Shown in pieces: positions 1 to 55,170 of a stretch of DNA of 64,000 nucleotides (position 1 is its first letter; each line of letters starts with the position of its first letter). A program made the position numbers and the translations under genes. The notes under the pieces were generated by a model. That model was given only the letters and a program-made list of their open reading frames with translations. It had not been told where the DNA came from and did not search any database. Location: the NCBI RefSeq assembly GCF_030684315.1, contig NC_081391.1, positions 13,927,342 to 13,991,341 of the forward strand, given 5' to 3'. Source of the stretch: Stegostoma tigrinum. Taxonomy: Eukaryota.

Positions 1-3000
1 ATCTCTATCAGTCTTTGGTGAGTGGTGTCTCTGTTGGGTGAAACATACTTCTGTTCTGTTGAAGTGAACTCTACCCCTTGGATGTAATTAAGTTGTCTAT
101 CTTTTATAGACTGAGTTTTGTGGCTCCTACCTCTTTCTCAATGCAGGATGAGTGTGATGTTACTGTAACAATAGTTTGGTGTCCAATGTTACTCTAACTT
201 GGGTCCCAGTTGGTTGTCAGTGAGATGTGGAGTGTTCTTGTAGTTACTTGCCTGTCCCATGATGGTGCTGTGACTGGTGGTAATTATAGCTTCCTGTGGC
301 TGTTTGAAACTTGAGGGAACTAATTTAAAAATGAATTGGGACTCACCATTGTGGGAATGGAAGCACCATCAGCTAGTCACTGCTCTTCTTTTCCTTCTTG
401 TATCCTTGCTTGTATTTGAATTTTGTGGTGATCCCAACTTAACATCTCAAATAATCTTGAGAATCTTGATTTCCTATTGCAATCAGCTTAGAATAGGCTT
501 GTTCTAGCCCTACAGAGCTGGGCTGAGAGGTGGCAAATGGAGTTTAATGCAGACAAGTGAGGTGATGCACTTTGGTAGGAGTAACCGGAAGGCAAAGTAC
601 TGGGCTAATGGTAAGATTCTTGGTAATGTAGATGAGCAGAGAGATCTCGGTGTCCACGTAAACAGGTCCTTGAAAGTTGCCATCCAGGTTGATAGGGCGG
701 TTAAGAAGGCAGTGTTTTCTCTTTTGATTAATAGAGGCATTGAGTTCTGGAACCAAGAGGTTATGGTGAAGCTGTACCAAACTCTGGTGTGGCTGCACTT
801 GTAGTATTGTATACAGTTCTGGTCACTGCATTATAAGGATGTGGAAGCTTTGGCAAGAGTGCAGAGGAGGTTTACTAGGATGTTGCCTGGTATCGAGGGA
901 AGCTCTTATGAGGAAAGACTGAGGGACTTGAGGCTGTCTTCATTGGTGAGAAGGTTGAGAGTTGACTTAATTGAAACATATAATATTCTGAGGGTTGGAA
1001 AGGGAAATCCTCTTTCTGCGGACGGTGAGCATGAGGGGGCATAGCTGTAAATTGAGGGATGATAGATATAGGACAGATGTCTGAGGTAGTTTCTTTACTC
1101 AGTAGTAAGGGAATGGAATGCTTTGCCTGTGACGGTAGTAGATTTGCCAACTTTAGGTACATTTAAGTCATCATTGGACAAGCATATGGACGTACAGGGA
1201 ATAGTCTAGGTTAGATGGGCTTGAGATCAGTATGACAAGTTGACACAACATCTAGGGCCTGTACTGTGCTGTTATGTTCTAGTTTCAGATTAAACTGGGT
1301 GAGGTTGTGACTGGTATCTGATCAAGCAGATCTCCATTTGAGATCTACTTTGCTTTTTTTCATACTCATGAGGTGGGTGTGGGCTGTCTGTATATGAAGT
1401 GTTGGAGCTTTTCCAAGGCACGGCACTGCCGTGGGGCTGAGAATGTGCGGAGGGTACTGACCCAGTGAATATGGAAAAAATAGCTTATTCCTGTTGTATT
1501 TGGCCTGACTCGAAACTAACTAGCCCCTCTTTCCCCAGGTGGTTGGGTGCCTGTGCCCTTCCAAGGGGTAGAATGTGTTTAGAAGTAACCTTAGTGAGTG
1601 TTGCCGGGTGCTCTCTGGGCTTGTGCTTGTCAGCAGGAAGTCCTGTCATGATGAGGATCAAGTCCCTGTCAGCCCCACTTTGGGAGGTGGCAACAGCTTT
1701 CATTGAGCCAGCAGTTCAGTTTTAATCGCTGACCCATGTTCCTAACACAACTTGGAAGCATGTCCCAAGAGTAAAATCTCCACTATTCTACATCTTCTAA
1801 CTGCCCATTTAAATGGGCAATGATAAATTGTGCTTGTGTTTGCATTTGACAATTAAAGCAACTTTTTTCAGCAGGATTCCCAAGAATGTGTGTCTTAGTA
1901 GCTGCTTCCAATAGCAGACCTGGTAAACCTGAATACATTGAATTGTGAACATCCTGGTTTAGAAATCTACAGGACTTTGCCTGTTGGATTAAGTCAACAG
2001 TAGCATTTCCAGGTTACTGTTTTAATAAGTGATGTTGTCTAGAGAGTAGGTGATCTGCAGGTCACTGTCATATTTGTCATGTGATCAGTTTGTTTTGTCA
2101 ATCATTGTTTCATGTGTAATGGTACAAGTTGCTAGCAGTCTCAGTACAGCTGTTTTAGATGCAGCAGTAAACTGTATCTAGAACAATCCAAAGACTGTCC
2201 CGAGGCAGGCTTTCCTTGGCAGATTCTTGGTGCCCATGTCCTTCATTCATCCCTTCCCCCTCACCCCAGCCACCCCACTACTGCAGCCCTTGTCAAACTA
2301 ATACAGTGCATCCAATTGCATTGATCCTGACTAAGCAGAAAATGTGCTCCTTCCTAGCTGTTAGTTGCAGTGTCTGGGATCTGTTTTCTGGCCTTTGCCA
2401 AAGGAGCAATAGCGTGCCCTGCAGCTGTTCTATTGGTGCACATCCTGCATTCCAGCTTCTGGCATTTCTTGAAACCCTATTCAATCAGTAATTTTCCCAT
2501 TTCTGGTGGAGGTTAATCAGTAAAAACATCAATTCACACTTGTTCTCACCCAATGCTGTGCCAGACCCACTGAGCAATTTGCCAGGAGTTTCAAACCAAA
2601 ATAAAACACATGGTGTTTACAGCTTACCTGGAGGAAGCTGGGATTGTTTTGATTTTTCCAATTCAACAGGAACTGCTCAAAACTGGGTTCTGAATTGTTA
2701 ATGCATCAGGTACTTAACAGCTTATTGTCAATTTGATTTTGAGAATGCTCAAGTAGCCCTGGAGCTCTGAACTAAAATTGGCCCGTGACTTGTTAATGGG
2801 CTTTACCTTGATCTCCCTTCCAGATGTCCTACTTTGACCGGGATGATGTTGCCCTCCCCCATGTCTCCCGCTTCTTCAAACATCAGTCCCAGGAGAAGCG
2901 GGAACATGCAGAGAAGCTGCTGAAATTCCAGAATCAGCGTGGAGGCCGGGTCCTCCTCCAGGATGTGAAGGTTGGAGTTGGGTGGGGTGGGGGTTGGGAT

Positions 3001-5084
3001 GGTAATGGCTGCTCTTGTGGTGTGGTTTCAAGTCAGTGACAAGGTTTTCATTTGAGTCAAATCTTTGTTCGGCCTGTTTGATCTCCTTTTTGAAGCCAGT
3101 GTAGAAAGAAGCCCTTTGGCCCACCATGTCTTTGCTGACCCCACAAACACTAAAGCACTTTAATCCCATTTACCTTCCCTTGGTCCACAGGCCACTGTCC
3201 TGGCACTATGTACTTGTCCAGCTGGACCTTAAACTGATCTGGAGTAGCTGACTCCACCACCATCCAACCCTTTATGTGGTTCATCTCATACTTCTAACCT
3301 CCCCCTCGGAGGAGGGTGAAGAGAACGTTTCCTCCAATCCCCTCTAACCTGCTTACTCCACAAACCTGGTTTCTCTCTGGTCTTGGTGTCTGCCATGGGG
3401 AAGACATTCCATCAACTGGCCACTCTCTATTCTTCAATAGTTACATCAGGTCACTCCCTCAGCCGTTCCTGCTCCACAGAAAATCCCAGCCTATCTAACC
3501 TCCAATCAATGGATCTTGGGCAACAGCCTGGGCAACCTCACCAGCTTCCCCCTGCAGTGCCATCCTGTCCTTGTGACTGGTGAGGCCAAAGAGGGAATAA
3601 TGTGGTGACTAGAAGAACAAACTGTGACAAGACTGGTCCCCTTCCTGTTCCACCACACCCAACTAATAGAGGTTGCTTGCCCTCTGTCACTGTTACACCC
3701 TGTTGACCTTGTCTGAACTTTGAGGGATCTATGGTTGTGGGCCTTTCTTAACTGTTAGCAGCACAACACACTTTGCAAACACCTCGCTGTCCCTTGGATG
3801 AATTAAATAGCCGTGATGTTTCTGATCATCCTGCTCAGGCATGTATGAAGCCACCAGCACAAGTGGTACTTGAACCTTGGCCTTGTCAGCCAGAGACAGG
3901 GGCACTACCACTGTACCATGACAGCATTTAGGATTCACTCGTGAATATCCTCGCAATTCCATCAGATGGACCCTGATGCAAATCTTGTCATTATCCCCCA
4001 CAATGACCTGTTATTCAACTTCCTCCTTCAGATCAAGGACCGACAGGCAAGGTGAAAGCAATTCTGAAGGAACTGTTCTTCAGCTGTGCTCCAGGGCTCC
4101 CTCAGGGGCTAGCAGTGTTCTCAGTGCTAGGGACACAGGTTTTGATCTGGCCTCTGGTGAGGGACTGGTGTTTACATGTCCTCCCCATGTCTGCGTTGGT
4201 GTCCTCATAGTATAAGAGGATTGGCCATCTGAAATGCAGGGTTACAGGAATAGAGGGGGAGTGGGATGAGCTGGGATGCATTTCAGAGCAGTTCTGCACT
4301 GATCGATGTTGTAGAGATTCTGAAGCTTCACTTTCCTTCTTTCCATCCTCAGAAGCCAGAGAGGGATGAGTGGGGTAACAGCCTGCAGGCGATGCAGGTT
4401 GCCCTGGATCTGGAGAAGAATGTGAACCAGAGTTTGCTGGATCTTCACCAACTTGCCACAGCCCAGACTGACCCTCATGTAAGCTTCACCACTTCATTCT
4501 CTTCACTGCTGGTCACTCAGGGCAACACCTTCAATGGTTGGTCTTTTGTGGATTAGAAGTTGCCTGCTGTCTCAGACAAGTGCCATTTGGATCTCTTCAG
4601 ATCCGTACCAATGCTTATAATCTGATCAGCTCAGCAATCAAGTAAAATGGGAATTTGGATTATAATCTAGTAGGAGTGATGAAGTGATATTGGCCACTGA
4701 ATGCTCATCCAGGATTATTGCAGTGGAATGATCACTATCCATCATAATCCAACACAGCATCACTTAACAAACTGCAAGAGCAGTTGAAATACATGGTCCT
4801 CACTGGCATAGTCTCCAGGTGTTGGGTTTTCAGGGTAGTCTAGAGCTCATATGGCTGAGTGTTTTGCAGTAGGAAATCTGAGGTTGTCTTGGATACCATT
4901 AATGTAGCAAGTTGTCATATTCTTGCAGCTGTGTGACTTCCTGGAGACTCACTATTTGGATGAGGAGGTGGAGATCATCAAGCAACTTGGGGACTACATC
5001 ACCAACCTGAAGCGCCTGGGAGCCCCTGAGAATGGGATGGGAGAGTACCTGTTTGACAGGCTCTCCCTGGAGGACAGCAGTTAG
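1..5084 (+). CDS. Ferritin subunit copy 1 (H/M-like, ferroxidase-degenerate), 5'-truncated by window edge; exons <1-17, 2824-2970, 4353-4478, 4929-5084
   Basis: Exons translate to ...LYQSL | [49 protein letters not shown] | [42 protein letters not shown] | [55 protein letters not shown] boundaries fall at the conserved vertebrate ferritin intron positions. Confidence 0.93.
511..1283 (+). mobile_element. CR1-type LINE 3' fragment (degenerate ORF2 C-terminus) in intron 1 of copy 1
   Basis: Translates to EVMHFGRSN...YQTLVWLHL and [38 protein letters not shown], typical of the CR1 ORF2 C-terminus, with frameshifts and stops. Confidence 0.85.
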
Positions 5085-7125
5085 TGTGGCCTGGAGTACT
5101 GTCTGCTTGGTCTGAATGCATTCCCCACTTCACCCTGGGCAATCTGTCTCCTTCCAAGGAGAAGGGGCTTGTAGCAAACAATGTAATGGCTGAACCAGCT
5201 GAGTGGAAATGAATGAAATGTATTGATGTTGCTTATTGTCCATCATTGAGACCCTTGATATTAAAGAGCTTTTGAGAGCTTCAAGCCTGTAATTTTGGCT
5301 AATGAAATTATTAATTTGACAGAATATTTCCCTGGTCTTCCCTCCAACACCACCCCAGCATCAGTCTCGGAATTCCCGTGGAACTTCCTCTAAGTTATGA
5401 ATCCAAGTTATTCCTCCAGCCAGAACTTGAGGTTTGGGCCTGCGGGGTGTCAAGTCACTTTGTACTATTATCCCACAGCCAGGTATGATGAATACAGGTG
5501 CAGCTAAAATTTTCATTGCTTTCGAAAGAGAAAACACCCCTGCTTGGCCGAAAGAAAGACTTGACACCCACTTTCACAGAAACAGGGCTGTAGGATGCTT
5601 TATGTTCATGTCTAGTTTGCTAAGCAATAGCTTCTCTGTCAACCTCCACCAACCGAGACTGATTGCTAAAGTCCACACAAATCACAAGTTGATGCCAATG
5701 TAAATTCTGTGCCAGCTGGCTCAGCTTGCCTCAACAAGAGCTTAAGGGAAGAGATCCAGCAGCGTCCCCTCTCTAGCCTTGTGGAGGAACCAGCAATGCT
5801 GGGAGCAATAAAATTGAACTGAGCAACGGGGATCTGACACACCTCGTCTATTCTATTCAAATCAATGTTATTACTTTTTCCGGACAGTGCATCCTCGATT
5901 CACTGAGACCCAGTTGAGGTTCAAGCCAAGACCAGCCCTGTGGCCTCCTGACCCCCACCACCAACTGCCTGGCTCCGGACAGCCATCAGCAGTTGCTCAC
6001 AATGACCAGTTCATTTGTTCCTTCGCCTGAGGAACATGCGCTGCTCTCCCAGGCGATATGGATTCAATACCCATTGTAGCTCGACAAGAAAGCTCACACG
6101 GGGGGAACCATTTCCCAGGAGTAATCCAAAGCTGTCCTAATGTGGCTTTGCTCCGTTTACTTCCTTGCTCTCTGCCAAGTCTTGGTCAAAAACCCCACCA
6201 CGCCTAGTAATAAACTTCAGGCCAGCCAGCCCAGAGATGGGAATATTCAGCACAAGTCTGCTTGAAAAAATTCACCTGAACTGGATGCACTTAATGGCAC
6301 CTACAGCAGGATAATAGTGACCTGGGAATAACACAGCAACGCTCCTGGTTAAATGCTGCCATTTGATTGGCTCTTGCTGCTCAAGCCAGCATTGAGCGCA
6401 CTAAGCTGCTCCCTTGGTTCCTCTGAGCTTCCCCCACGGGGAGGGTTACTCCTGATGCAGGTTGATTTCACCCGATCACATTGAAGGAGCAGTGTGACTC
6501 AGGGAGGAGAACTGGAGATGCTGACTTTCCTGAATGGCTGCTTCCTTTATCTTTCGAGGTGTCAGAGATCGTGGTTTAGGGAGGGGGCTGTCAGAGACAT
6601 CCTGGGGAATGTTTCAGGGAGCTTTGTAGCGAGTGGACACTGCAGCCTTCACTGAGGGTGTGGGTCTTTAAGGCACTGAATGTATTTGTTCCACCACGTA
6701 GAGTTTTATTTTAAACAATCTTGAGTCTTGGCTGTAGAATCGCTGCAGTGCAGGAAGAGGTTGTTCAGCCCATTTAGTCTGCACTGATCCTCTGAACAGC
6801 ATCTTGTTCAGACACACCCTGCCTTCTTCCGCCATCTTTCCCACGGCCAGTCCAAAATAAACTGCATGTCTTTGGACTGTGGGAAGAGGCCCACACAGGC
6901 ACGGGGAGGATGTGCAGCCTCCACACGTGACTGAAATTGACCCCAGGTCCCTGGCACTATGAGGCAGTAATGCTGACCATTAAAATACCCTGCCATCCAA
7001 AAGTTACAAAAAACAGGAACACTCTGTTGCATAGAATTAGAGTGAATGACTCGTTTCTCACGGAAACAGACCCTTCGGTCCTACCTGTCCATGCTGACCA
7101 GATTTCCCAACCTGACATAGTCCCA

Positions 7126-7317
7126 AGATAATAAAATGTGAGGCTGGATGAACACAGCAGGCCAAGCAGCATCTCAGGAGCACAAAATCAGAGATGAAGG
7201 GTCTAGGCCCGAAACGTCAGCTTTTGTGCTCCTGAGATGCTGCTTGACCTGCTGTGTTCATCCAGCCTCACATGTTATTATCTTGGAATTCTCCAGCATC
7301 TGCAGTTCCCATTATCA
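7126..7317. mobile_element. Short hairpin (inverted-repeat) Penelope-terminus-derived insertion with a 14-bp TSD
   Basis: Inverted arms of ~60 bp spanning 7123-7286; flanked by CTGACATAGTCCCA at 7112-7125 and 7318-7331. Confidence 0.8.
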
Positions 7318-7994
7318 CTGACATAGTCCCACTTGTCTGCCTTTGGCCCATATCCTTCTAAACCATTCCTTTCCATGCAAATCTCCAAATGTCACTTAAA
7401 TGTTGTAATTCTAACTACCTCCACCACTGTCTCTGACAGCTCGTTCTAACAATGCACACCACCTTCTGTATGAAAATGTTGCCCCTCATGTCCCCATCAA
7501 ATCTTACCCCTCTCCCCTCAAACCGATGCCCTCTAATTTTGGACCCCACCTGACCCTATCACAGCATGCTTTTTATATACAGTCAATCTTGAGTGTGCCA
7601 ATGGCAAGGCTACATTTAGTGCTCAGCAACTGTTACACTTCAGGAGATGGTGATGAGCTGCTTATTACAGTCCACCTGGTGTCGGAGAGACCGGAATGAT
7701 GCTGCTGCTGTTGCTGAGGAGGGGCTTCTGGGATCTTCACTCACAAACACTGATATTATTCCAAGTCAGGATGGTGATGGATTTACTTGGAGCTGCTTCA
7801 GTGTCACTGGGGCGGCATTGAGCTGGAAAATTGCAAACTACTCCAGCATTATTCCCAACTTCAGTCTTATCGATGGTGAACAGACTCTGGAAAGTCTGAA
7901 GTAGAGTTATTCACAACAGAATTCCCAGACTCTGACTTGGTCTCAAAGCCATGAGCACATGAATTAGGATTGACCTCTGCCCATGGTTTCTTAG

Positions 7995-9392
7995 AAAATA
8001 GAACCTAGAACAGTGCAGCACAGTTCAGGCCCTTCAGCCCACGATGTTGTTTCGAACTTTTATCCTAAACCCAAGGACGATCTCACCTCCACTACCTTAT
8101 ATCCATATGCTTATCTAATAGCCGCTTAAAATCCCCTAACGAGGCCGACTCCACTGCACTCTCCGGCAATGCATTCCACGCCCCAGCCACTCTCTGAGTA
8201 AAGAACCTACCTCTGACATCCACCCTATATCTACCTCCACTCACTTCAAAACTATGCCCCCTCATAATAGCTAACTCCATCCTAGGAAAAAGTCTCTGGC
8301 TGTCATATCTGCCTATACTTATGATCATTTTGTACACCTCTATCAAGTCACCTCTCATCCTTTGTTCTGAAGAGAAAAGCCCTCGTTCTCTCAACCTTTC
8401 TTCGTAAGACCTTCCCTCCATTCCAAGCAACATCCTGGTAAATCTCCTCTGCACCTTTTCTAACACTTCTACATCTTTCCTGGAATGAGGTGACCAGAAC
8501 TGGACACAATACTCCAGATGTGGCCGAACCAGGCTTTTGTATAGCTGGAGCATAACTTCACAGCTCTTGAAATCAATCCCTCTATGAATGAAAGCTAACA
8601 CACCACATGCCTTCTTGACAACTCTATCCACCTGACTGGCAGCTTTCAGGGAACTGTGGACATGAACCCCGAGATCCATCTGCTCCTCCACACTGCCAAG
8701 AATCTTTCCGTTAACCCTGTATTCTGCTTTAAAATTTGTCCTTCCAAAATGAATCACTTCACGCTTTTCAGGGTTAAACTCTGTCTGCCACTTCTTAGCC
8801 CCGCTCGGCATCCTATCAATGTCCTTTTGTAACCTGGAACAGCCGTCCACACTATCCACAAGTCAAATCACCTTCGTATCTTCCAAAAACGTACTAATCC
8901 GCCATTCCACTCCTACATCCAAATCATTTACCAAAATCGTAAATAGAAGAGGACCCCGAACAGACCCTTGAGGTACACCACTCGTAACTGAGCGCCATGT
9001 TGAATATTTTCAGTCAACTGTCACCCATGTCTTCTATGGGTCAGCCAATTCTGAATCCAATCTGTCTCATTTCCCCCGTCACATGCATCCTGACTTTCTG
9101 CATGAGCCTGCCATGGGGAACCTTATCAAACGCCTTACTTCAATCCATGTATCCCACATTCACTGATCTACCCTCATCCATACGTTTGGTCATCCCTTCA
9201 AAGAATTCAATCAGATTTGTGAGGCATGATGTACGCCTCACAAATCCACACTGGCCATCACAAATCATACTGTGCCTATCCAAGTGATCATTAATTCTGT
9301 TTCTTACAGCCCTTCCCATTAATTTGCCAACCACTGACATAAGACTAGCTGGCCTGTAATTTCCAGGGTTACCCCATTCCCTTTTTTGAACA
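7995..9392 (-). mobile_element. CR1-type LINE, 5'-truncated RT region plus 3' tail
   Basis: ORF 8993-region on the minus strand: 9140-9421 gives PGNYRPASLMSVVGKLM...SCLTNLIEFF and 8092-8859 gives KWQTEFNPEK...LVRPHLEYCVQFWSP...VQRRFTRM. Confidence 0.9.
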
Positions 9393-10160
9393 CATGAATA
9401 ATATTCAAACTTGTCATTCAAAGCTAAAAGATAGCACTAGACTGCATCCTGCTTTTTGAAGCAGATATTGAGTGAAAGTAACTTGCTTCCACCAGTCTGT
9501 ACATCAGTGCTGTGATCATACTCGAACGTTCATTGGGGATCCTCAATTCCCAAAGCCTCACAGGCCACCAGTCCATGGGAGGCTGCTCCATTCAACGCAG
9601 TTGCTGAGCCATACATTCTACAGAATGTAATGTAAACAGGACCAGCCACTCTCCATTTGGAAACATGCTGGAGTTAAGCTCTCGATCTACTTCAAACAAA
9701 TAAAAACCAAACTTTGCGATAGAAAGTTTGCATGTGCTATACATTTCCAGCAGCAATGTAGACAGGGAGGTGTGAGGTCTACTATGCAGGAGAGGCACTC
9801 AGCACATTTAGCACCTTGCTTTTCAAACTGCACTTCATGAACCCAACGTCAAGGAGATCACAGCAGATTCAGAATGGATCCACAAAGGAATGAGCTTCCT
9901 GTATGAGGTAACCCAAAAGCACATTGTTTCTGTCGCTGCACAGCAATAAGAAAATGTTTACTGTTAACAAAATCTGGCCATTTTTCAATGGGCTCCAACG
10001 CTGTTATTCAACAAGTACAAAGACTAATCCCTCAGAGTAACAAACTGACAGAATTCTGCCAATCTGTGATGAGTGTGTCTTAAGATATAATCTCAGATAC
10101 AATCGTGAACTTTTAGAGTATATTTTATTGTCATTTTCACAGAGAAATATTTCCAGGATT

Positions 10161-10361
10161 TGCACTTGTGCAGGAGGTCAAAGGTCAGTCAGCAATTCTA
10201 TCATCGACCAGTTGTCAATTCTGATCGTTTTCTGGATCCAATTCCCATCCTGCACTGATTGGACGTGGCAGCTGATCAATTGATGAATGAGAGTGATCGG
10301 CCATCACTGATGATGTCATTTCCTGCTCAAGAAAATAAAGGGCTGCTGCTCGAGTATAAAA
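10161..10361 (+). promoter_or_regulatory. Conserved ferritin promoter block, copy 2: DR1 10175-10187, inverted CCAAT, ACGTG, ATCAATTGAT palindrome, TGATGTCA, TATAAAA 10355-10361
   Basis: Motifs read directly. The block is conserved upstream of six copies with TATA about 95-100 bp before the ATG. Function is inferred. Confidence 0.75.
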
Positions 10362-10448
10362 ATTGTCCCAAGAGAGCGATGTTTATGATCATCTTTCTAA
10401 GTTTGTTATTTGATTTTGGAGGGAAAGGAAAGCTATTTTCTTCATAAA

Positions 10449-13400
10449 ATGGCCTCCCAGATCAGTCAGAACTATCACCAGGATTGTGAAGCTGCTGTCA
10501 ACAAGCAGGTTAATGTGGAGCTCACTGCCTCCTATCTCTATCAGTCTTTGGTGAGTTTTGTCTTGATGGAGTTGAAATTAAATCTATTCTGCAAAAATGA
10601 GCTGATCCTCTTGTTTCTAATTAACTTCATAGTCTTGTAGATTTGAGGAGTTTAAGTTTGCACCTTTAAAAATCATTTTGGGATAAATGTAATGCCCTTT
10701 GGTGACAATGGATTTTGATATTGATGTGCAGTATCTAATTCACCAGCTGGGATTGAGTGATAGATGGAGGGCAAATTGTTCTGTCAATTATTTTACAATT
10801 TACTGCCAGGTCTCTGCCTGGTGGTAACTGTTGTTTTCCTCCCCAGAATTGACCAAACTTTACTAAAATTAGATGTAATGGTGTTGGGAGTTGTAGGCAC
10901 CCCTTGGCTAGTCATCCTGTAACATTTTAATTTACCTTGATCACACTTAATTTGTGCTCTGATCCTAAATACACATGCCAGTTTCCATTCTGTGATGGAG
11001 AATGATGGCAGTGACTGGCTTCTCTGAGCATATGCACTTGTAACTTGCATTGAGGAGGCCTCAGATGTGGACTAGTTGGCTTTCTGCATTCTCAGTTCAT
11101 GAATGGACTGTTAGTGGCCAGGAAGTCACTTGTTGTCCATTCCTCCAATAGATCAATACCCTCCTGTGAGTGCATGCACAGGGTGTCTGGAATAACCTGA
11201 GGTCTTCACTTCACCAAAAAAGGTGAAGAATTGGAGTTTCAAATTCCCACGGTATGGGAAATGGTGCCTTTCTCCAGGGAGCACTGTGCCTATGGCCTCT
11301 CAAAATGGCAGGCTATAATGGTTTGTAAATGTTGAAGCAGCTTTTGAAGGCTGCTAGATAACTGGTAGATAGTGGACACTGGGAGTGCATTCACTCACTC
11401 CCTTCAATGAGGTGGGCTGCTCTGTCCTGCATAGTGTCTACTTTGTGCATGTTGCAGCTCCACTTCTTGGGAAAAAGGGAGAATATTCATCCCTCCATGG
11501 GGCTTATGTCTGAGAAGCATTCTCTTCCCACTCTGAGGATGAAATCCCTGTACCCTTCCCTTTAGCAGGTGGGAACAGCTATCACCAATAAGCCTGTTGG
11601 GTCTTAACTGTTAGTGGTGTCCCATATCAATTGGGCAGCATGTGCCCAAACAACCTACTATTGTATATCTGTGAGATGCAGCTACCCAAGAAAAGCCAGA
11701 GAAATTTACATGACTGTTTTTTGACAAAAGAAACTTCTCAGCCTGATCAGTTGGAACTAGATAACCTGCTCTAACAAGGTGTAGAGCTGGATGAACACAG
11801 CAGGCCAAGCACCATCAGGGGGAGCAGGAAGGCTGATGTTTTGGGCCTGGACCCTTGAGAAATGGGGAGGGGAAGGGGTCCCTGAAATAGGAAGGGGTGG
11901 GGAGGTGAATGGATGAGGGATAAAGAAACAGGTGGTGAGGAGACTCCGGTCTGAGGTAAGGATGGAGCCAATCAAGTCAAGTGAGTTGAGTAGGCCTGTC
12001 CGTGGAGGTGGGGATGGGATTTGAGGTGGCGGGGGTCGGCGGGAGGTTGGGTGGTGTGGGGAAGTAGGTGGGAGGAAGGACGGACCAGTCGGGGAGGTGG
12101 GAACTAGCTGAGCTGTGATTGGGGGAAGGGAGATCTTTCAGCTTAAGTCCTCACTGATACCATTGGGCTGCAGGGTTCCCAAGCAGAATACAAGGTGCTG
12201 TTCCTGCAACCTTTGGGTGGCATTGGAGGCCCAGAATGAACATCAACTGTCCCCTCCTGCCCCTCTGAAGGGGAAGTATTTTGTGACTGGGAGGTGCAGC
12301 TGCTGGTCACGAGCCCAGCATAGGCACTCCACAAAGTGGTGTCAAGCCTCTGCTCGGATTTCCTGATGTAGAGGAGGCCACATTAGGAGCAGTGGATACA
12401 GCATACCTCACTGCAGGTGTGTAGGTCCACTTCGTCTTGATGTGGAAGGTCTTGGGGCCTGGGATGAGGGGAGGTGTAGCACAATCTGTGTGGCAGGAAA
12501 AAAGCCCTGGCTAGTGGAATGTACAAGGGAATCAGTGGTCTCTCCAGAAGGCAGCTAAGGTTGGAGAGGTAAAACATGTCTTTGTCAGATTGTAGATTGT
12601 ATAAGTGCCAGAGGATGATGCACTGGATCCTGGCATTGAGGTGGTACTGAAGGATGAGAGGATTCTGTTTTGGTTGTGTGAGGGATAAGATGCAAGACCG
12701 GTTGTGTTTATCTTCCACTAAAGGGAAGTTACGCTCCCTCGGAAAACGAGGACATCTGGGATGCCCAGGAGTAGAATGCCTCCCCTCGGGGCTGGAGGTG
12801 AAGGAATTGGATTAGGGGATGGCGTTTTCCTTCCACAGGAAGGTGGGTAAGGTGTATTCTAGGTAGCTGTAGGAGTCAGTAGGTTTGAAATATATCAAAG
12901 ATTGATAGACAAACTTAAGGTTGAGGTAGAAGGCTCTAATGAATTAGAGGAACCGTTCAAGCTCCTTTGTGGGATGTAATGGAGGAAGATGTGGAGTTTA
13001 TGGCCCATCTCCCTGTAGAAGGATTGTTCCACAAATCCTAACAGAAGCAGGCACAGCCTGGGCCCATGCAGGTACCTATGGCCACCCCCTTCCTCTGTAG
13101 GAGGTGGGAGGAATTGAAGGAGAAGTTAGGGGTGAGGATGAGTTGGCTAGTGGACAAGGTTGTTGGTGAATGGGGACCAGTCAGACCTGCAGGATGAGAG
13201 AAGCAGAGGGCCTTAGGCTATCTCCATGGGGAATGGATGAGGTTGGAGGCTGTGGCTGGGAGGTCATCTCCAGTGAAGTTGTAAATGGACTAGGAGATGG
13301 TTTGGTGGTCAGGGGTGGAGTCATGATCAAGGGCGGGGTGGTAGGAGGTATCGGCTGCTCTTCCACACAAGTAAATGTGGCACTCCAGCTCCTGGCATTT

Positions 13401-15027
13401 CCTTAAACCCTGTTCAGTCACAAACTTCATCCAATTCTGATGGTGCTTAGAGTGGAAATGCTCTTCTCTCTACAGACAAGAACAGGCATGGTCAATTCAC
13501 AGGTTTTGGTCAAGGAATTTCAAGTTTGCCTGGTTACCAGGAGGAGGCGAGGGTTGTTTTTGATGATCCTTGAACTGGAGCCACTGGCTAATTGGACAAT
13601 GGTTCTCATCCACCTTGATGTATTTAAAAAAACATGTCATGTTTATTGACTTCTCAATTTGATTGAAGGCTAAACCAGTCATGTCTGGCACCAATTGCAT
13701 GATGTTTAATGGTTGTAACTTGTTTTCTCCCAGATGTCCTACTTTGACCGGGATGATGTTGCCCTCCCCCATGTCTCCCAGTTCTTCCAAGATCAGTCCC
13801 AGGAGAAGCAGGAACATGCAGAGAAGCTGCTGAAATTCCAGAATCAGCGTGGAGGCAGAGTCCTCCTCCAGGATGTGAAGGCTGGTGTTGGGTTTTTGGG
13901 GTGGGGGGAGTTGGGTGGTAGAGAGTGGCTGCTCCTCAGGGATGGCACAGTGACTCGGTGTTTACCATGCATGCCTCAGTGCCAGGGATCCAAGTTTTGT
14001 TCTTGGTTCTAGGCTCCAGTGAACGACTGGAGTTTACTTGTTCTTGCCATGTCCACATTGGCTTCACGGTTCAATGACGTGTGGGTTAGAAGGATTGCCA
14101 TTTAAAATGCAGGGTTACAGGAATAAGGTGGGATTGTTCACAGAAGGGACTTGTAGCGACGAACGCAGTGGCCGTACCTGCTGATCGGGGATGAATAAAA
14201 CGATGTAGTGACCTTTGTTATTGTCACCATGTGTCAAATAGCCTGTTCCCATGCTGCAGAGATTCTGAAGCTTACCTGTCCTTCTCTCCATCCCCAGAAG
14301 CCAGAGAGGGCTGAGTGGGGTAACAGCCTGCAGGCAATGCAGGTTGCCCTGGATCTGGAGAAGAATGTGAACCAGAGTTTGCTGGATCTACACCAACTCG
14401 CCACAGCCCAGACTGACCCTCATGTGAGCTTTCCCACCTCCTCGTTCTGATCACTGCTAGGCCCTCAGGGCAACACCTCATTGGTCTTTTGTAGATTAAA
14501 ATTCACTGGGATACTTTGATCACAATATCATATCTGAACAGTATGTTCATTTAATCAACATTAAAACAGCTCAGCAATGAGCTGAAATGGGAATTTGGAT
14601 TCAGTACCACGAGTGATGTTGGCCACTGAATTCACTTTCAGGGCCACTTGCAGTAGAATGATCATTGTCTGTCACAGTTCAGCTCGGCTCCACTTCACAA
14701 ACAACAAGGTGCATCTGGAATGTTACTGTCCTCCCTGGCGCAACATCTAGATGTCAGTGGCTTTTCCAGCTGTCGAGAGCCAGTTATGGTGGGGTCTGTT
14801 TCGCAGTGGGAATTCTGAAAATTTCCTGGATCATGCAAATGTACCAAGTTGCCATAATTCCTCTGTTGCAGCTGTGTGACTTCCTGGAGACCCACTATTT
14901 GGATGAGGAGGTGGAGATCATCAAGCAACTTGGGGACTACATCACCAACCTGAAGCGCCTGGGAGCCCCTGAGAATGGGATGGGAGAGTACCTGTTTGAC
15001 AGGCTCTCCCTGGAGGACAGCAGTTAG
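10449..15027 (+). CDS. Ferritin subunit copy 2; exons 10449-10550, 13734-13880, 14298-14423, 14872-15027 (176 aa); GC donor after exon 2
   Basis: [34 protein letters not shown] plus intact exons 2-4. The intron-2 donor reads AAG|GCTGGT rather than AAG|GTTGG. Confidence 0.88.
11772..13345 (-). mobile_element. Degenerate Penelope-like retroelement (RT plus GIY-YIG remnants) in intron 1 of copy 2
   Basis: Minus-strand 13021-13088 reads [13 protein letters not shown].. (cf. PLE RT GxAMGxxMGPxYA). Minus-strand ~12340-12420 reads [20 protein letters not shown] (cf. GIY-YIG VYxIxCxxCxxxYIGET). The terminus is shared with the hairpin elements. Boundaries are approximate. Confidence 0.75.
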
Positions 15028-16616
15028 TGTGGCCTGGAGTACTGTCTGCTTGGTCTGAATGCATTCCCCACTTCACCCTGGGCAATCTGTCTCCTTCCAG
15101 GGAGAAGGGACTTGTAGCAAAGAATGTAATGGCTGTACCAGCTGAATGCAAATGAGTAAAATGATGTGTTTATCTTGGTTCTTGTCCATCATTCAGACAG
15201 CTGGACGCTGCAGGTTCTCACCAATAGGCCTATGGGAAGAGATATCAGGCTCTGCTTTCTGCCCAGGTGCAGGAAACAGCTCAGCTGGGACTGAGATGAG
15301 TTCAACCTGACTCGTATCCTCCCAATGGGCCCTGACATGACCAGCATATTCTGTTTTACATTTGCTGCCTTTATCTCATGTGGACACAGCCTAAAGTTAC
15401 TGGGAGCCGGTGAAGGTTCAAACCAAGGCCAGTACTGGTGGGCTGAGACCTACCCTGCCTTGTTACAGCCTACTGTAGTTGACAGCACTGAACAGTTCAT
15501 TCCTCTTGTTGTGGGAGTTAAATATGCTGCTACCCTGAAGGGATCTTGGTGTAATTACCCTTAGCCTCGAGTCAATTCTCCTAGGAGCATTCTGAAGCTG
15601 GCCTAATGTGGCTTTTGTCAGTTTACTTTCTCTGACCTGTTCCAACACCTTCATTGCTTTTCTCACCCCTCCCACCACCCCACTCCTAGCAATAAACTTC
15701 CACCCTGCCAGTCTACAGCTGGGAAAATTCAGCCCCAACATTGACAGCACCCATATTCCATGGAGTTAGCTCAGGAAATTATCTTGAACTGTTACATGCT
15801 CATGTTTGAGCTCAATACCACTTCGAGCACCATCACTGTGTCTTTTGGAGTAACACAGCAACACTGGTGGTTCAATGCTGCCATTTGATTGGCTCTTGCT
15901 GCTAAAGCCAGCATTGAGCACACTAAGCTGCTCCCTTGGTTCCTCTGTGCTTCACACACGCTGAGGGTTACTCCTGATGAAGGTAGATTTCACCCAATCA
16001 CATTGAAGCATCAGTGCGACTTGGAGAGGAGACCGTGAGATGCTGACTTTCCTGTACGACTGCTTCTTCTATCTTTTTGAGGTGTCAGAGAGATGATGGG
16101 TTGAGGAGGGGGTGATCAGAGCCAGCCTGGGGATTGTTCCAGGGAGTTGTGTAGCGAGTGCACACTGCAGCCTTCACTGAAGGTGTGGGTCGTTCAGGCA
16201 CTGAATGTATTTGTTCCACTACATAAAGTGTTTTATTTCAAATAATCTTGAGTCTTGGCTGTAGAATCTGTGAATCCGTGCAGTGCAGGAAGAGTTTGTT
16301 CAGCCCATTTAGTCTGCACTGATCCTCTGTCCTCTGAACAGCATCTTGTTCAGACACACCCTGTCTTCTTGCCCCCATCTTTCTATCCCACAGCCATTGC
16401 AAAGTAAACTGCATGTCTCTGGACTGTGGGAGGGAAGGAACCCACACAGACACGGGGACGATGTGCAGCCTCCTCAGAGTCGCCCATGACTGGAATTACA
16501 TGTGGGTCCCGGGCACTATGCAGCAGTAGTGCTCATCAGTAAGATACCATGCCCCCGAAAGTAACAAAAACAGGAGCGGGTGGTGAGGAAAGTAAAGCAA
16601 GCTTTTCCTTTATAAG

Positions 16617-19600
16617 ATGAGTTCCCAGATCAGTCAGAACTATCACCAGGATTGTGAAGCTGCTGTCAAAAGGCAGATTAATGTGGAGCTCACTGCCTCC
16701 TATCTCTATCAGTCTTTGGTGAGTGCTGTCCCTGTGGGGTTAAAACTTGATCTATGTAGTTGAAGTAAATGTTTTCTCTTGAATTTAATTAACTGGACAC
16801 TCTCTCTTTGTAGATTGAGTTTTGTAGTCCTTTCCTAAATATTAATTCAGGATAAGGGCAACGTTACTATACCAATGGGGTTTGATAATGATGTACTCTG
16901 AAGCTGGGTCCCAGTTGGGCTTCAGAGATATGTGGAGGATGAAGTGTCCCTGGAGATATTTACCAGTTTGGTGTTTGAATTGGCAGTAGGTGTCATTCCC
17001 TCTAAGATTACCAAATGTTGGTAGGGTTACTTCAGAAAGGTATTATATTGATCATACTGTGGGACTAGAATCACCCACTGGCTAGTTACCCTCTTTCTGA
17101 CAGGTTTAAGTATCTGATTTTATATTTGCTTGCTTTTGTGGTGATACTTAAATATCAATTCTGATATTGACAATGATAATTCCCTATTGCAGTCTGCTGT
17201 GGCTAATCTGAGCAAACCTACTTGAGGTTAGGCTGTGAGTGACTGGTATCTGACTTTTTAAAGTAGATCTCAGCTGAGGCCTGCTTGGCATTTTGCACTC
17301 CCATCATGAGATGGGTGTGGCCTATCCCTGAACCTGTAGAAAGTTGATCTGCTTTAGTGTGTGGCGTGTTGAAGCTTCTGCAAACCATGTTTGCCTCCTG
17401 CCCCCTCACCCACACCCTGCATCCCCTCTAGCTGCTGGCGTCTGAGATTCATGGTCCAGTCTCTATGCCATCCTGATAGGGAACAAACTGTCCCCTTTAG
17501 CCAGGTGGCAGTGAACCTGTAACTTTCCAATGGGTAGAATGTTTCAGACAGTAGGAACAGCAGATGCTGGAGAATCTGAGATAACAAGGTGTAGAGCTGA
17601 ATGAACACAGCAGGCCAAGCAGCATCAGAGGAGCAGGAAGGCTGATGTCTTGGGGCATGACCCTTCTGAAGGTGGGCCTAGGCCCAAAACAGCAGCCTTC
17701 CTGCTCCTCTGCTTGGCCTGATGTGTTCATCCAGCTCTACATCATCGTATCTCAAGGGGTAGAATGTGTTTGGAAGTTGTGTTGAAGTAACCTTGGTGAG
17801 TGCTGCAGGGGACCTGGTAGATAATTCTCCCTGAAAGGAGGTGGTGAATGCAGTCCCCATGAAGTGGGCTGCACTGTCCTGGATGGTGTCTGCATCTTGA
17901 ATGTTGTAGCTCCACCTCCACAGACACATGGAGAATCTTCTTCACTCTGAGCTTTTGTCTGTTAGAAAGAAGATGCCTCATGACAGATGGATGAAGCCCG
18001 TATAAACTCCATTTGGGAGGTGGGTACAGCTTTCATTGGTGAGCCAGTTGACGGGTTTTAATTACTGACTAGGGTCCCAATTCCCTTGGGGAACACGTGT
18101 GCCAATTATAAAATCCTTCCTATTCTCTCCTGCCACAGCTTGTTCCTACCCCGTTAAACAGACAAGAAATTTTGTTTGACTGCTTCTACATGAAGACAAT
18201 AACTTCCCACCAGGCTTCCTCGACAACAAAACTCTTAGCTCCTGTTTCAAATATCAGAAGAATAGCCCTTCATAAACCTCAAGGCATTGGATTGTGAATA
18301 TCTCGGTTCGGAAGTGAGTCACATGTGGGTGGACAAACAACAGAACGGTGCCAGCTGGGATAAGCCAAACTTTGTTGTCCAGCTTTGTGTTAACTAGTGA
18401 CGTTAGATCAGCCATTATCTGTAGATACAGGTCACATTGGTTCTTTCTCTCCAATGTTTGACCTTCCCTCAGTTTGATTCAATTTGTTTTGTTCATGTGA
18501 CCCTTGTTCTCCCCCTTCTGGATGTGAGTGCACTAATTTTAGTGTGCTATAAACTATAACTGCAACAATCCAGAGGCAGTTACTGGGTAGGTTTTCCTTT
18601 GCACTATCTTGTTGTCGCTTTCTCTCATTCGCCTCTATTATATCTTGTAGTCATAAAATATACCGTACATTCAATCTCCCTGGTTTTGAGGCCACAGAAA
18701 CCTTGCTTCCTCCTGGTTATATTGTTACAGCAGTGTCTAACATGTATTTCCATGCCAGCCCCAAAGGAGCAATAGTGTTACAGCTCCCCTACTCAAGTAT
18801 AGCCTGCACTCCAGCTCCTGGTGCTTGTTTCAGCTGTTTGTTTGGCACTAATATTGTCCAATTCTAATGAAGGTTCGTGAGTGCAAACATGGCTGGATAC
18901 AAGAAGAGCTATAATGCTGTGCCAGGCAGCCTGAGCAATTTACTGTTTGTTTTAAGCCAAACTTTTGCCAGTTTCCAACAGGAAATTGGGATTGTTCTGT
19001 TTGATCCCAGTTGAAGGATCTGCTGGACAGCTGGACATCATTGGGTTCTCAAACATGTTCACATACCAGGCAGTTAGTTTGCTGCAGAAGGCTGAACTAG
19101 AATTTGGAGTCAGTGCTGTGTTTAATGGGCTTTAACATGTTATCTCCCTTCCAGATGTCCTACTTTGACCGGGATGATGTGGCCCTCCCCCACTTCTCCA
19201 GGTTCTTCAAAGATCAGTCCCGGGAGAAGCAGGAACATGCAGAGAAGCTGCTGAAATTCCAGAATCAGCGTGGAGGCCGAGTCCTCCTCCAGGATGTGAA
19301 GGTTGGAGTTGGGTGGGAGGGTTGCAGCTGTGGAGGAGAGAATGGCAGCTCTTGTGGTGCTGCGTCCTGTTGGGATGTGAAAATCCTATTTTGGCCTGGC
19401 TTCCCTGTTTGATTTCTTTTGAAGGCAGTTTCTAAACAAGCCCTATTGTCCACCATGTCTATGCTGCCCACAAACATCAAACTAGATTAACACAATTTCC
19501 TGCACTTAGTCCACAGCCGACTATCTTCTGGCATGAAGAAGTTGTTGAGATTAGGCTTCAATGTTGCTGGAGTAACTGCCTCCACTGACCCCACAGGTAA

Positions 19601-21345
19601 TGCATCCCATACCTCTCCCACCCTCGACTGGGTGGGTGGGTCCTCCAATCTCCTCAAACCTGTGCCATCTGGTCTTCATGTCTGCCATGGGGACTGTGTA
19701 TTGTCCATCCTCCCTGATCTTCCACACTTCCATCAGATCACCATCCCAGGCTATCCAACCTCCCTCTCATCATTGTATTTTTGTTGTCTTTTTTTGCTTC
19801 CATCTTGGGCCAACATCCTGATGACCCTCACCTGTACCCCCTGCAGTGCCACCTTGTCCCTCTGATGGTGGTTCTGGTCACCACACTACATTCCATCTTT
19901 GGTCTGGACAATGCTGCCATGTTTGTGGCAAGACTCATCCTTTCTACTGAGCCCCAAATCATGGAGACCAGCATCATGTCAGCCCCTTCCCCACTCTGTC
20001 TACCTTTGCTGAACCTTGAGGGATGGACTTGGGCATTTGTTGCTTGTCCCTTTTACTGTAAGCACATTGCTCCCTTCAATGAATTAAATAGTAGTGATGT
20101 CTGATCATCCTGCTCAGACATGGATGAAGCCACCAGCACAGGTGAGACATAGATGCCTGGCCTGCAAGGTGCAGATTGGTACTCTACCTCAAGAGCCCTT
20201 GAGACTAAGGTGTCAATGTCCTGATCTAAACGCCAAATGGGCACTGGTGCAAACAGTTGAACTTTGTGTGAAATAAATCCCTAGCCCACAATGACTTCAT
20301 GCTTCAGATCAAGGATAAATGGAGCAAAGTGAAGTCACTTCACAAGTAATGAATGTGGGTTTTAGGGGTGGCACAGTTGCTCAGTGCCAGGGACACAGGT
20401 TTAGCTCTGGCCTCTGATGACTGGTGCTTACATGTTCAGGTTTCTTCCTACAGTCCAAATATGGGCAGGCTGCGTGAAGTAGCCATGGGGGAATTGCAGT
20501 GCGAATGGCTCAGGTAAATCTGAGATCTTCTTCAGAAGGTTGATTGCAGACTCAATGGGCTGAATGGCCTGCTCCCATGCTGCGGCGAGTCTCTGATTCT
20601 GAAGCTTAACTGTTCCTGTTTCCATCCTCAGAAGCCTGAGAGGGATGAGTGGGGTAACAGTCTGCAGGCAATGCAGGTTGCCCTGGATGTGGAGAAGAAT
20701 GTGAACCAGAGTTTGCTGGATCTACACCAACTCGCCACAGCCCAGACTGACCCTCATGCAAGCTTCACCTCTTCATTCTCATCACTGCCATGCCTCCTCA
20801 ACTTCATTGGTTGGTCTTTGTGGAGTGGAAATTCACAGACGTAACTTTGTCCAGATGCTACATTGTACCTTTGTCATCATAATTATGATGACAATGTTAA
20901 ACTGCTCAACACCGAACTGAAATAGGAATTTGGATTACAGTCTAGTGGGAATGCTGATGTGATTTTTGGCTGCTGAATTGGGGATTGTTGCACTATACAA
21001 GACAACTTGGAGCTCTTTAAGAAGGTGAGATGAAGCAGCTGAAATGTCCTCACTGGCACAAATTCTCCACCTGTTAGCTAGATTTTCAGGGATGTCTAGA
21101 ACTAGCTATGGCTCAGTCTTTTTCAGTAGGAATTGTGAAGTTGTCTTGGATAGTATAAATGTACCAAGTGTCATATTCCTCTGTTGCAGCTGTGTGACTT
21201 CCTGGAGACTCACTATTTGGATGAGGAGGTGGAGATCATCAAGCAACTCGGGGACTACATCACCAACCTGAAGCGCCTGGGAGCCCCTGAGAATGGGATG
21301 GGAGAGTACCTGTTTGACAGGCTCTCCCTGGAGGACAGCAGTTAG
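16617..21345 (+). CDS. Ferritin subunit copy 3; exons 16617-16718, 19155-19301, 20632-20757, 21190-21345; promoter deleted, GC donor after exon 3 (possible pseudogene)
   Basis: [34 protein letters not shown] with an open frame in all exons. No DR1/CCAAT/TATA block upstream. The exon-3 donor is CAT|GCAAGC. Confidence 0.78.
17543..17752. mobile_element. Hairpin Penelope-terminus-derived insertion (opposite orientation) with a ~15-bp TSD
   Basis: Inverted arms GAACACAGCAGGCCAAGCAG / CTGCTTGGCCTGATGTGTTC; flanks are CAATGGGTAGAATGT 17528-17542 and CAAGGGGTAGAATGT 17753-17767. Confidence 0.72.
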
Positions 21346-23552: not shown

Positions 23553-26500
23553 ATGGCCTCCCAGATCAGTCAGAACTATCACCAGGATTGTGAAGCTGCT
23601 GTCAACAAGCAGATTAATGTGGAGCTCACTGCCTCCTATCTCTATCAGTCTTTGGTGAGTGCTGTCCCTGTGGGGTTGGAGTTACTTCTGTTATGAAGTG
23701 AACTGTTTTTTTTAAAACAAACTAGATTAATACTCTTGTATAATAAAATGTGAGGCTGGATGAACACAGCAGGCCAAGCAGCATCTCAGGAGCACACATT
23801 TAGCTTTTGTGCTCCTGAGATGCTGCTTGGCCTGCTGTGTTCATCCAGCCTCACATTTTATTATCTTGGAATTCTCCAGCATCTGCAGTTCCCATTATCT
23901 TTAACACTCTTGTAGACTTGTTTGTTTTTTTTGTATCTCTCTTAGCTATTTCTTGATTCAGCGTAAATGTGGTGACAATGGGATATGATACTGATATGCA
24001 GCAACTGAGGCCCCAGTTGTCTCAATGATATATGGAGGGTGAAGCATCTTGTGATTTATCTTAGAATTCCTTTTAGGGCTGTGATTGCCTATAACTGGCT
24101 GTGGCTCTCCATAATTTTCTAAACTACTGTCAAGCTTTGATCCAGATAACCATTGGCTAACTACCTTTTTAAATCTGCCTTGATGTATCTGCTTTAGTTT
24201 TGTGCATGTAAATAAACAAACATACTGGTTTTGGTATTTACAATAAGGTGTTGTAGTAATTTGACAAATCAGATTTTTTTAAGCTGAACTCAAGTCCTTG
24301 AGGTTAGACAAGCTGCTCCCTGCTTAAGTAGGTCTCCAATATTATTTTGGCTTTCTGTGCTCTATATAATGAAGTGGGTTTGATCCATCACTTAACAACC
24401 TATAGAAAGTTGACTTGTTATAGGTGCCTGCCCCCCCCGACCCCCCCCCCCCCCCCCCAAAGGGGGCTGCTGGAACATGCTGAGGCTATTGACCCAGAGG
24501 TGAAGAAATAAATGTTCTTCCTTTACCATTTAACCAGATAAAGAAACAAACTGGCTCCTCCCACCATGTGGTGGTGCCCCTGTGCCCTTCCAAGGAGTAG
24601 AATGTGTTCAGAAGGTGTTGAGGTCCCCTTGGTGAGTGCTGCAGGGGACCTGGTAGATAATGGACCCTGAAAGGAGGTGGTGAATGCAGTCCCCACGAAG
24701 TGGGCTGCTCTGTCCTGGATGGTGTCTGCTTCTTGCACGTTGCAGCTCCACTTCTCCAGACACATGGAGAATATTCATCACTCTCTGGGCTTGTGCCTAT
24801 TGGAAGGAAGTCCTATCTAGGGACATGAGGATAAAGTCCCTATAACTACCTTTTTGGGAGGTGGGAGTAGCTTTAACTAGTGAACCAATTGTTGGGTTTT
24901 AGTCACTGACCACTGTCCCAACTCAATAGGGAATCTTGTGTGCTGATAATAAAATCCCCACTATTCTACACCTTCTACAACTTAACTACCCATTTAAACT
25001 ACTTTTTCAACTTTTAGTTTGTATTTGAGGATCAAACTAACCTCTCACCAGGATTCTACCAAAGAACAACTTCTTCTTTTGATGTCAATAGACTATTCCT
25101 AATCAGCAGTAACTTGTTGGATTGTGAATCTCAGTTGACAAGTGAGTGAAATGAGTGGGGAAAACAATAGTTTAGCCTCTTGGAATAAGCTAAATTGAGC
25201 TCTCCAGCTTTGAACAAGTCAATCTATAGGTCATACAGTCCTGCAGATACCATTAGGTCTCCTGAACATTTGATCTTGTTTCAGTTGTGAATTTTAATGC
25301 TTTGCTTTGCAAGCTTCTGGCAACCTGAGTGCATGGCATAAACAAATGTGATAAACTATTGCTGCAACAAGCCAAAGGCTGTCACTGGGCAGGCTCTCCT
25401 TTAGCACCAAGATTCTCCTAATCGCCCTCATTCTCCTGCATACTGCAAACAGCATCTCTTGTAGAGCTGCTTTATGTAAAAAAAATACAGTACATCTGAT
25501 CCAATTGGTTGCAGAAGACCTGTACCTACTAGCTATATTAATGTCCAGCATCTGCATGCTACTCTAGCACCAGGGGAGACATGTAATGACTTGAAGTTGC
25601 CTGACCCTGTGCACATCCTGCATTCCAGCTCCTGGCACTTGTTTAAACCCTATTCAGTTACCACTTCCATCCAGTTCTGGAGGCTGGATGGCAGAAATGT
25701 GCTTTCAGCTTTTCTGTCTAGGCTGTGCCAGACCCACACGCCCAAACAATTCAGCAGAGTTTACAAACCAAAACACTGAATTTGCATCTTACATGGAAGA
25801 AGCTGGGGTTGTTTGGCTTCCTCCAATTAAAGGAGCTGCTGGCTAATTTTGTAACACCATTAGTGAACATTGTAAGGTGTCAACAATTTTCAGCTGATTG
25901 AATCATTAGTTTGCTTTAGACTAAACCAGTCCTCCAGTTCTGAGCATGAGAAATGAGGTCAATCATGTGTTTAATGGGCTTTAACATGTTATCTCCCTTC
26001 TAGATGTCGTACTTTGACCGGGATGTTGTTGCCCTCGCCCATGTCTCCCGGTTCTTCAAACATCAGTCCCAGGAGAAGCAGGAACATGCAGAGAAGCTGC
26101 TGAAATTCCAGAATCAGCGTGGAGGCAGAGTCCTCCTCCAGGATGTGAAGGTTGGAGTTTGGGAGGGGGGCGTGGTGTGGTGTGCAGGAATAGTAGCTCA
26201 TGGTGTTTTTGGTCACTAGTGACAAGATTCACATGTGGTAAAGGATGTGAAGGTTGGAGTTGGAGAAAGCAGGCAGTGGGGAGGAGATGTGAGAAATGGC
26301 TGCTTATGGTGTGGTTTCATGTCCTGAAAGAAAGTGAAAACTGTTTTGTTTGGCTCCCCTCCTTTTGACTAAAAGGAAAGAAATCCCAGAAACAAGCCTC
26401 TTGGCTCCCCTCCACCTGCTGCTTCTCCCCCCACCCCCCCCCCCCCCCCAACCCATGCTGACCCAACAAACACCAAACCACATTAATCCCATTTACTGCA

Positions 26501-45041: not shown

Positions 45042-45113
45042 TGTGGCCTGGAGTACTGTCTGCTTGGTCTGAATGCATTCCCCACTTCACCCTGGGCAAT
45101 CTGTCTCCTTCCA
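39954..45113 (+). repeat. Recent duplicate of 1-5156 (offset ~39.95 kb)
   Basis: Near-identical introns and exons (ORFs 841/40786, 3316/43273, 4266/44223). Confidence 0.93.
40455..41227 (+). mobile_element. CR1 3' fragment in intron 1 of copy 6
   Basis: [17 protein letters not shown]...; near-identical to 511-1283. Confidence 0.85.
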
Positions 45114-54978: not shown

Positions 54979-55170
54979 AGATAATAAAATGTGAGGCTGG
55001 ATGAACACAGCAGGCCAAGCAGCATCTCAGGAGCACAAAATCAGAGACGAAGGGTCTAGGCCCGAAACGTCAGCTTTTGTGCTCCTGAGATGCTGCTTGA
55101 CCTGCTGTGTTCATCCAGCCTCACATGTTATTATCTTGGAATTCTCCAGCATCTGCAGTTCCCATTATCA
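54979..55170. mobile_element. Hairpin insertion, duplicate of 7126-7317
   Basis: Same arms; TSD CTGACATAGTCCCA / CTGACATTGTCCCA. Confidence 0.78.

Follow-up and report, generated by a model that had tools for sequence, protein, structure and literature searches.

A tandem ferritin gene array with lysine at position 62 in Stegostoma tigrinum: candidate genes for an L-like ferritin subunit in sharks

The window analysed here is a 64,000-nt stretch of the Stegostoma tigrinum genome (contig NC_081391.1, positions 13,927,342 to 13,991,341 of the forward strand). It contains eight ferritin genes in tandem, each with four exons (102, 147, 126 and 156 bases) and all on the + strand (Table 1). A unit of exons 2-4, seen in copy 1 at 2824-5084, is present eight times on the + strand; seven first exons were located, and the tail of the eighth lies at bases 1-17. 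Over exons 2-4 the copy 1 protein is 100% identical to P0010, a Stegostoma tigrinum protein named 'ferritin, middle subunit-like'. Seven of the eight copies have open frames over the part inside the window. Copy 6 has a 1-bp deletion immediately 5′ of codon 60 (near 42847), so its K62 is out of frame as assembled; the copy is either a pseudogene or contains a read error.

The ferroxidase center of H and M chains comprises E27, Y34, E61, E62, H65, E107 and Q141 (PMC2603009). None of the copies encodes this complete set, as K62 and E141 are present in 8/8. All eight copies also encode Y34, E61, E64, H65, E107, I144 and L173, and E27 is found in the seven copies whose exon 1 is visible, the E27 codon of copy 1 lying before base 1. 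Position 63 is R, Q or W. The three-fold channel residues H118, C130, D131 and E134 are intact in 8/8, and the inner-surface carboxylates E61, E64 and E140 are likewise kept. P0010 aligns with the pig H chain with no gaps in 174 columns, and with the 182-residue mature H chains of the PDB at a constant offset of +3 (2-175 versus 5-178). The lysine is therefore at position 62. Residue D139 was considered as a further L-like feature and rejected, because pig and bird H chains also have D139.

An initial annotation of this DNA, made from its letters alone, had described an E-K-[R/Q/W]-E-H motif in every copy, together with E141 and I144, retained H65 and E107, and an intact three-fold channel. 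All of these hold, with the motif of copy 6 behind its frameshift, and the alignment to H chains that it proposed placed the lysine as described. It had also described E27 and Y34 as kept within the interval 2890-4980. Y34 is indeed kept in 8/8 and E27 in 7/8, but both residues are encoded outside that interval, and E27 of copy 1 outside the window.

Table 1. Ferritin gene copies and an example promoter in the 64,000-nt window.
Feature	Coordinates	Strand	Exons	Remarks
Copy 1, end of exon 1	1-17	+		Y34 codon 6-8; remainder including E27 precedes the window
Copy 1, exon 2	2824-2970	+		Residues 38-86: H57, Q60, E61 (2893-2895), K62 (2896-2898, AAG), E64, H65 (2905-2907)
Copy 1, exon 3	4353-4478	+		Residues 87-128: E107 (4413-4415), H118 (4446-4448)
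Copy 1, exon 4	4929-5084	+		Residue 129 to stop: C130 (4932-4934), D131 (4935-4937), E134 (4944-4946), E140, E141 (4965-4967, GAG), I144 (4974-4976), L173 (5061-5063)
Proximal promoter, copy 2 example	10175-10448	+		TATA-like box at 10354; ~70-nt leader
Copy 2	10449-15027	+	10449-10550, 13734-13880, 14298-14423, 14872-15027	Open, 176 codons
Copy 3	16617-21345	+	16617-16718, 19155-19301, 20632-20757, 21190-21345	Open frame
Copy 4	23553-28391	+	23553-23654, 26004-26150, 27647-27772, 28236-28391	Open
Copy 5	31719-36890	+	31719-31820, 34614-34760, 36145-36270, 36735-36890	Open; W63, R143
Copy 6	39870-45041	+	39870-39971, 42782-42927, 44310-44435, 44886-45041	Frameshifted exon 2
Copy 7	48686-52888	+	48686-48787, 50859-51005, 52143-52268, 52733-52888	Open
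Copy 8	58310-62886	+	58310-58411, 61593-61739, 62157-62282, 62731-62886	Open

The family profile PF00210 was matched on P0010. A single-sequence AF2 model reached a pLDDT of 42 and was discarded; the alignment-based AF2 model that was used (pLDDT 88.9) contains helices A-E and superimposes on frog M and mammalian H chains with TM scores of 0.94-0.96. The structural modeling called for by the initial annotation thus predicts a normal ferritin subunit fold. Over the eight copies there are 26 synonymous and 36 non-synonymous changes (omega 0.37, p=1.5e-4), with a mean pairwise ratio of 0.34 for six copies, and the copies are under purifying selection. The invariance of the active site over the eight window copies was rejected as a sign of selection, because the copies are recent duplicates and not independent.

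A common promoter was found in six of the seven copies with a 5′ end in the window, with a TATA-like box located ~95-105 bases upstream of the ATG in these six. A direct repeat lies ~180 bases above the TATA-like box in 6/7 promoters (10175, 23275, 31444, 39595, 48413 and 58028), which we take to be a DR1-type element resembling a nuclear receptor site. The promoter presumably also contains two to three inverted CCAAT-type boxes, and a putative CAGCTG E-box in four copies. Copy 3 is without the common promoter. The DNA upstream of it (15847-16616) matches 6325-7018, downstream of copy 1, which suggests an unequal-crossover junction. No Rfam match to the iron-responsive element (IRE) was found in the window, and the CAGWG loop is absent from 6/6 predicted leaders.

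Three homologue searches were made, with the best 120 matches taken from each. Among the matches listed, the K62 shark group accounts for 12 of the 102 named ferritins tabulated, from the genera Stegostoma, Chiloscyllium, Hemiscyllium, Mustelus, Cetorhinus, Carcharodon and Heptranchias. E141 is found in six of the 102, all from carpet sharks, and in 0/36 further named proteins. The named proteins tabulated from these matches include no K62-clade member of rays, chimaera, Scyliorhinus, Heterodontus or Pristiophorus. In a comparison of 11 clade members, K62, E27, Y34, E61, E64 and E107 are invariant, while H65 is replaced by R, R or Y in three. E141/I144 occur in four members, all orectolobiform, and these four keep H65 as well; L173 is present in 10/10 members reaching position 173. 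Full-length open members exist in four shark orders, and many of the gene models in the database are truncated or fused.

The same sharks carry a second, canonical ferritin type with E62, Q141 and M144. In six shark species the longest contigs of the K62-type and canonical clusters are equal in length, from which we infer that the two types are linked on the same chromosome. In the database, P0010 falls in a cluster of 45 members and the canonical Stegostoma protein P0156 in one of 69, counts that may span several assemblies or species. Outside the clade, K62 was found in 3/90 other named proteins among the matches listed (marmot, Elgaria and a canonical-type copy of Heptranchias). Sporadic N62 or K62 was observed in P0122, P0175, P0194, P0048, P0182 and P0105, which comprise canonical-type shark copies, a lizard gene and a marmot ferritin-like gene. 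Judging from these sequences, position 62 appears to be struck repeatedly in multi-copy ferritins. One further match, P0036, shares 72% identity with the shark protein but carries the label of an Aeromonas veronii ferritin; it is probably a mislabeled vertebrate sequence and was not used.

The main tree has 80 rows, 75 named proteins and five window copies, without L rows. Within the K62 group, which is monophyletic (support 100/99) and follows the shark phylogeny, Heptranchias branches first and the carpet sharks form a subclade (100/99). The K62 clade stands apart from the H chains in this tree, which holds no FTHL17 sequence, and the canonical array of sharks together with a chimaera gene forms its sister group (99/87). 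The L-like site was most likely built in two steps, E62K first and Q141E/I144 later. The distribution of residues suggests that E62K would date to the ancestor of living sharks or earlier, with Q141E and I144 arising in carpet sharks only. Shark species relationships were used to polarize the gain of E141; on these relationships, one gain in the carpet-shark lineage is more parsimonious than two losses of an ancestral E141. Gene conversion from canonical neighbors could mimic a loss of E141. The E141 of carpet sharks is probably convergent with that of L chains. For K62, convergence is also favored over inheritance, as one G-to-A substitution is enough for E62K and this change recurs elsewhere.

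We propose, with moderate confidence, that the K62 genes represent an old shark ferritin subfamily that would act as an L chain, a ferroxidase-dead subunit co-assembling with the canonical E62 ferritins. If so, sharks probably own a many-copy, non-catalytic ferritin subunit. The ammonium group of K62 would sit in the di-iron pocket, paired with E107 and, in carpet sharks, possibly also with E141. Such pairing would remove fast ferroxidation and stabilize the helix bundle. The subunit would join the E62/Q141/M144 ferritins of the same chromosome in 24-mers, to which it would supply shell, iron entry and a mineral-nucleation surface. The probable site of action would be the iron stores of the ovary and oocyte, under transcriptional control. 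In L chains a K62-E107 salt bridge takes the place of the iron site and stabilizes the subunit (PMC11396501, PMC2603009). The double mutation E62K/H65G abolishes ferroxidase activity (PMC6929972), and in human FTHL17, where the other ligands are kept except for E61D, E62K is reported to be enough to abolish it (PMC7760355). The initial annotation had pointed to the Lys62-Glu107 bridge and Glu141 of mammalian L chains and the null phenotype of E62K/H65G, in agreement with this literature and with the L chains in the PDB. In the Greenland shark, ovary-specific expression is reported for the largest ferritin cluster (preprint 10.1101/2024.09.09.611499).

The L chains of the PDB have Y27, K62, G65, E141, L144, L173 and glutamates at positions 57 and 60. 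The shark copies resemble mammalian FTL in K62 with E107 (a predicted bridge), E141, a hydrophobic residue at 144, the four-fold-channel L173, E61/E64/E140 and the three-fold channel. They differ in keeping E27 and H65, where L chains have Y27 and G65, in being without E57, E60 and an IRE, and in existing in dozens of copies. Overall, the shark K62 protein is nearer to M/H chains (69-70% identity) than to FTL. The best PDB matches by both sequence and fold are frog and teleost M chains, which have the same four-exon gene; the canonical shark array also shares this gene structure and is 71-75% identical to the K62 proteins. M chains and the canonical shark array differ from the K62 proteins in having a complete ferroxidase center and mostly E57.

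FTHL17 is a further parallel, with E62K and the other ferroxidase ligands mostly kept. It lacks ferroxidase activity, is multi-copy in mouse (Fthl17) and is expressed in germ cells (PMC7760355). FTHL17 is an X-linked mammalian H-like gene with D61, whereas the shark genes have E61 in 8/8, four exons and the added E141, I144 and L173, and group in a shark clade of their own. The initial annotation had called the site an H/L hybrid. Its L-like character is supported, also by Leu173, which had been missed, and the combination is less unusual given the FTHL17 precedent. In the sponge ferritin HdF2, E62K is likewise found, and atypical invertebrate ferritins usually have no IRE; HdF2, a much more divergent protein, also loses E27, E61, H65 and E134 (PMC8395497). 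In the Greenland shark an ancient tandem expansion (at least 250 My), conserved in the great white shark, comprises 155 copies labeled FTL and 179 labeled FTH1 (10.1101/2024.09.09.611499). In the available part of that preprint the labels are eggNOG/BLAST annotations made without active-site analysis, and a match of the FTL copies to the K62 clade is not implied. In the available part of a review of ferritin history, the sole reference to elasmobranch ferritin is an observation from 1952 (PMC11719527). A search of the shark ferritin literature, covering few subscription journals, turned up no description of a shark subfamily with K62.

Several observations weigh against an L-like role. In the 11-member clade 98 of 171 columns (57%) are invariant; therefore the invariance of K62 in 11/11 members is alone not significant. 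Two nucleation glutamates of L chains are missing, as the initial annotation had noticed: position 57 is H in four copies and D in four, and position 60 is Q in six and R in one, being unreadable in copy 6. With these changes, nucleation may be weaker than in L chains. An omega of 0.37 is relaxed for a ferritin. There are GC splice donors in intron 2 of copies 2 (13881) and 8 (61740) and in intron 3 of copy 3 (20758), and the remaining intron-2 donors are weak (GTTGG). The window has no canonical ferritin copy, and the ovary data come from another species, with K62 and E62 copies not separated.

The splice donors, the frameshifted copy, the copy without the common promoter and the truncated or fused database gene models would also fit decaying duplicates; K62 would then be a loss-of-function mutation without any role, passively spread by amplification of the array and by gene conversion. 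We consider this very unlikely in view of the significant constraint on the copies, the open full-length members in four shark orders, a clade that tracks the species phylogeny, and a promoter kept in 6/7. The subunit might instead bind one metal (Fe, Zn or Cu) via E27, H65, E107, E141 and Y34, or act as a slow ferroxidase with E141/E61 replacing E62. All 11 clade members keep E27, Y34, E61 and E107, the four carpet-shark members each have H65 and E141 as well, and Q141E brings an extra carboxylate to the second site. Against this stand the background invariance mentioned above, the combination of E141 with K62 in L chains as well, and a lysine in the pocket, which would repel cations. The mononuclear metal site suggested by the initial annotation is poorly supported because H65 is not kept throughout the clade and FTHL17 is inactive despite keeping its ligands except E61 (PMC7760355); we regard metal binding or slow oxidation as unlikely. 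The copies could also encode a ferritin of the germ line whose role is not iron storage, comparable to FTHL17 (K62, multi-copy, germ-cell expressed, partly nuclear); this would agree with the same K62 change, the multi-copy array, the missing IRE and the ovary expression of the shark cluster. Yet all eight copies preserve the three-fold channel and the carboxylates of the inner surface, and the extra L-type features E141 and L173 suggest a storage shell. FTHL17 is also reported to be unstable (a title cited in PMC7760355), whereas the salt bridge stabilizes L chains, and such a role seems to us rather unlikely.

A further alternative concerns descent and is compatible with the L-like function: the shark K62 clade may be the true orthologue of tetrapod L, with K62 inherited from the jawed-vertebrate ancestor as a surviving early L form. 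No protein named light chain was among the matches listed. A search among representative sequences gave L-like matches; those with the mammalian G65 signature were excluded, and two non-mammalian proteins, P0339 and P0329, are the only L-type rows. The best PDB matches of P0339 are L chains; P0329 is without exon 2 and retains E27 alongside E141/L144, as an early L form might. With all columns, the two rows group with the shark K62 clade (97/99 and 96/99). Residues outside the site also tie them to the shark arrays: the two rows have T125, E162 and L173 in common with the K62 clade and with most members of the canonical shark array, as against 8% of 36 other rows, and L37 is found in 5/8 K62 rows and both L-type rows. 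However, when the 14 active-site and nucleation columns are removed, the L-type rows exit the K62 clade under both models, and the clade becomes sister to the canonical shark array and the chimaera gene (88/86, 75/87). The all-column grouping was for this reason rejected as proof of orthology. Approximately unbiased (AU) tests reject neither arrangement (p 0.444 and p 0.447, with two L-type rows, both long branches). E62K recurs in the 3/90 proteins outside the clade, in FTHL17 and in sponge HdF2. In a published tree teleost M is the orthologue of tetrapod L, and the word 'shark' is absent from the available part of that text (PMC4117605). Orthology thus appears to us possible but doubtful. 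The initial annotation had left the choice between a convergent L-like subunit and a relic of L-chain origin. Convergence accords with the late gain of E141/I144 within the carpet sharks, while K62 itself is old in sharks, and the AU tests reject neither of its origins. If orthology were true, a blocked non-catalytic subunit and the H/L heteropolymer design would predate the split of sharks and bony vertebrates. Sharks would keep the early stage, K62 with E27, H65 and Q141, to which carpet sharks then added E141 and a hydrophobic residue 144 in parallel to tetrapods. Living sharks would form an ordered mutational series of L-chain evolution, and the orthology of teleost M and tetrapod L would need revision.

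The array has grown by segmental duplication. The 9.4-kb segments 6754-16141 and 54607-64000, which hold copies 2 and 8, are 99.3% identical; either they were duplicated very recently, or the assembly has placed two haplotypes one after the other. The segments of copies 1 and 6 (1-5260 and 39955-45223) are 98% identical. Exon 4 (4929-5084 and its counterparts) is much more uniform among the copies (pS 0.036) than exon 2 (pS 0.14), which suggests gene conversion. Besides the ferritin copies, only repeat fragments were found in the window. Intergenic open reading frames at 8092-8811, 46716-47813 and 55945-56664 presumably are fragments of LINE reverse transcriptase, which they resemble. A mir-2756-like hairpin in intron 1 of copy 4 (23761-23841, - strand; E=5e-8, but under the family threshold) is probably an inverted repeat.

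The split between catalytic H and non-catalytic L chains is usually seen as a tetrapod feature; fishes use H and M chains, both of which oxidize iron. Inactivation by K62, in L chains and FTHL17, and the expansion of ferritin genes in sharks are already known. The new part is the residue-level description of the shark K62 subfamily, none having been found in the literature search. Sharks appear to carry dozens of blocked-site copies, and these represent two natural stages: most sharks have K62/Q141, carpet sharks K62/E141/I144. The names that such copies bear in the database, 'heavy' or 'middle subunit-like', are misleading as to function. Whether convergent or inherited, these natural variants allow a test of the order of the changes and of their effect on activity and stability, and they raise the question of why egg iron stores would favor non-catalytic subunits.

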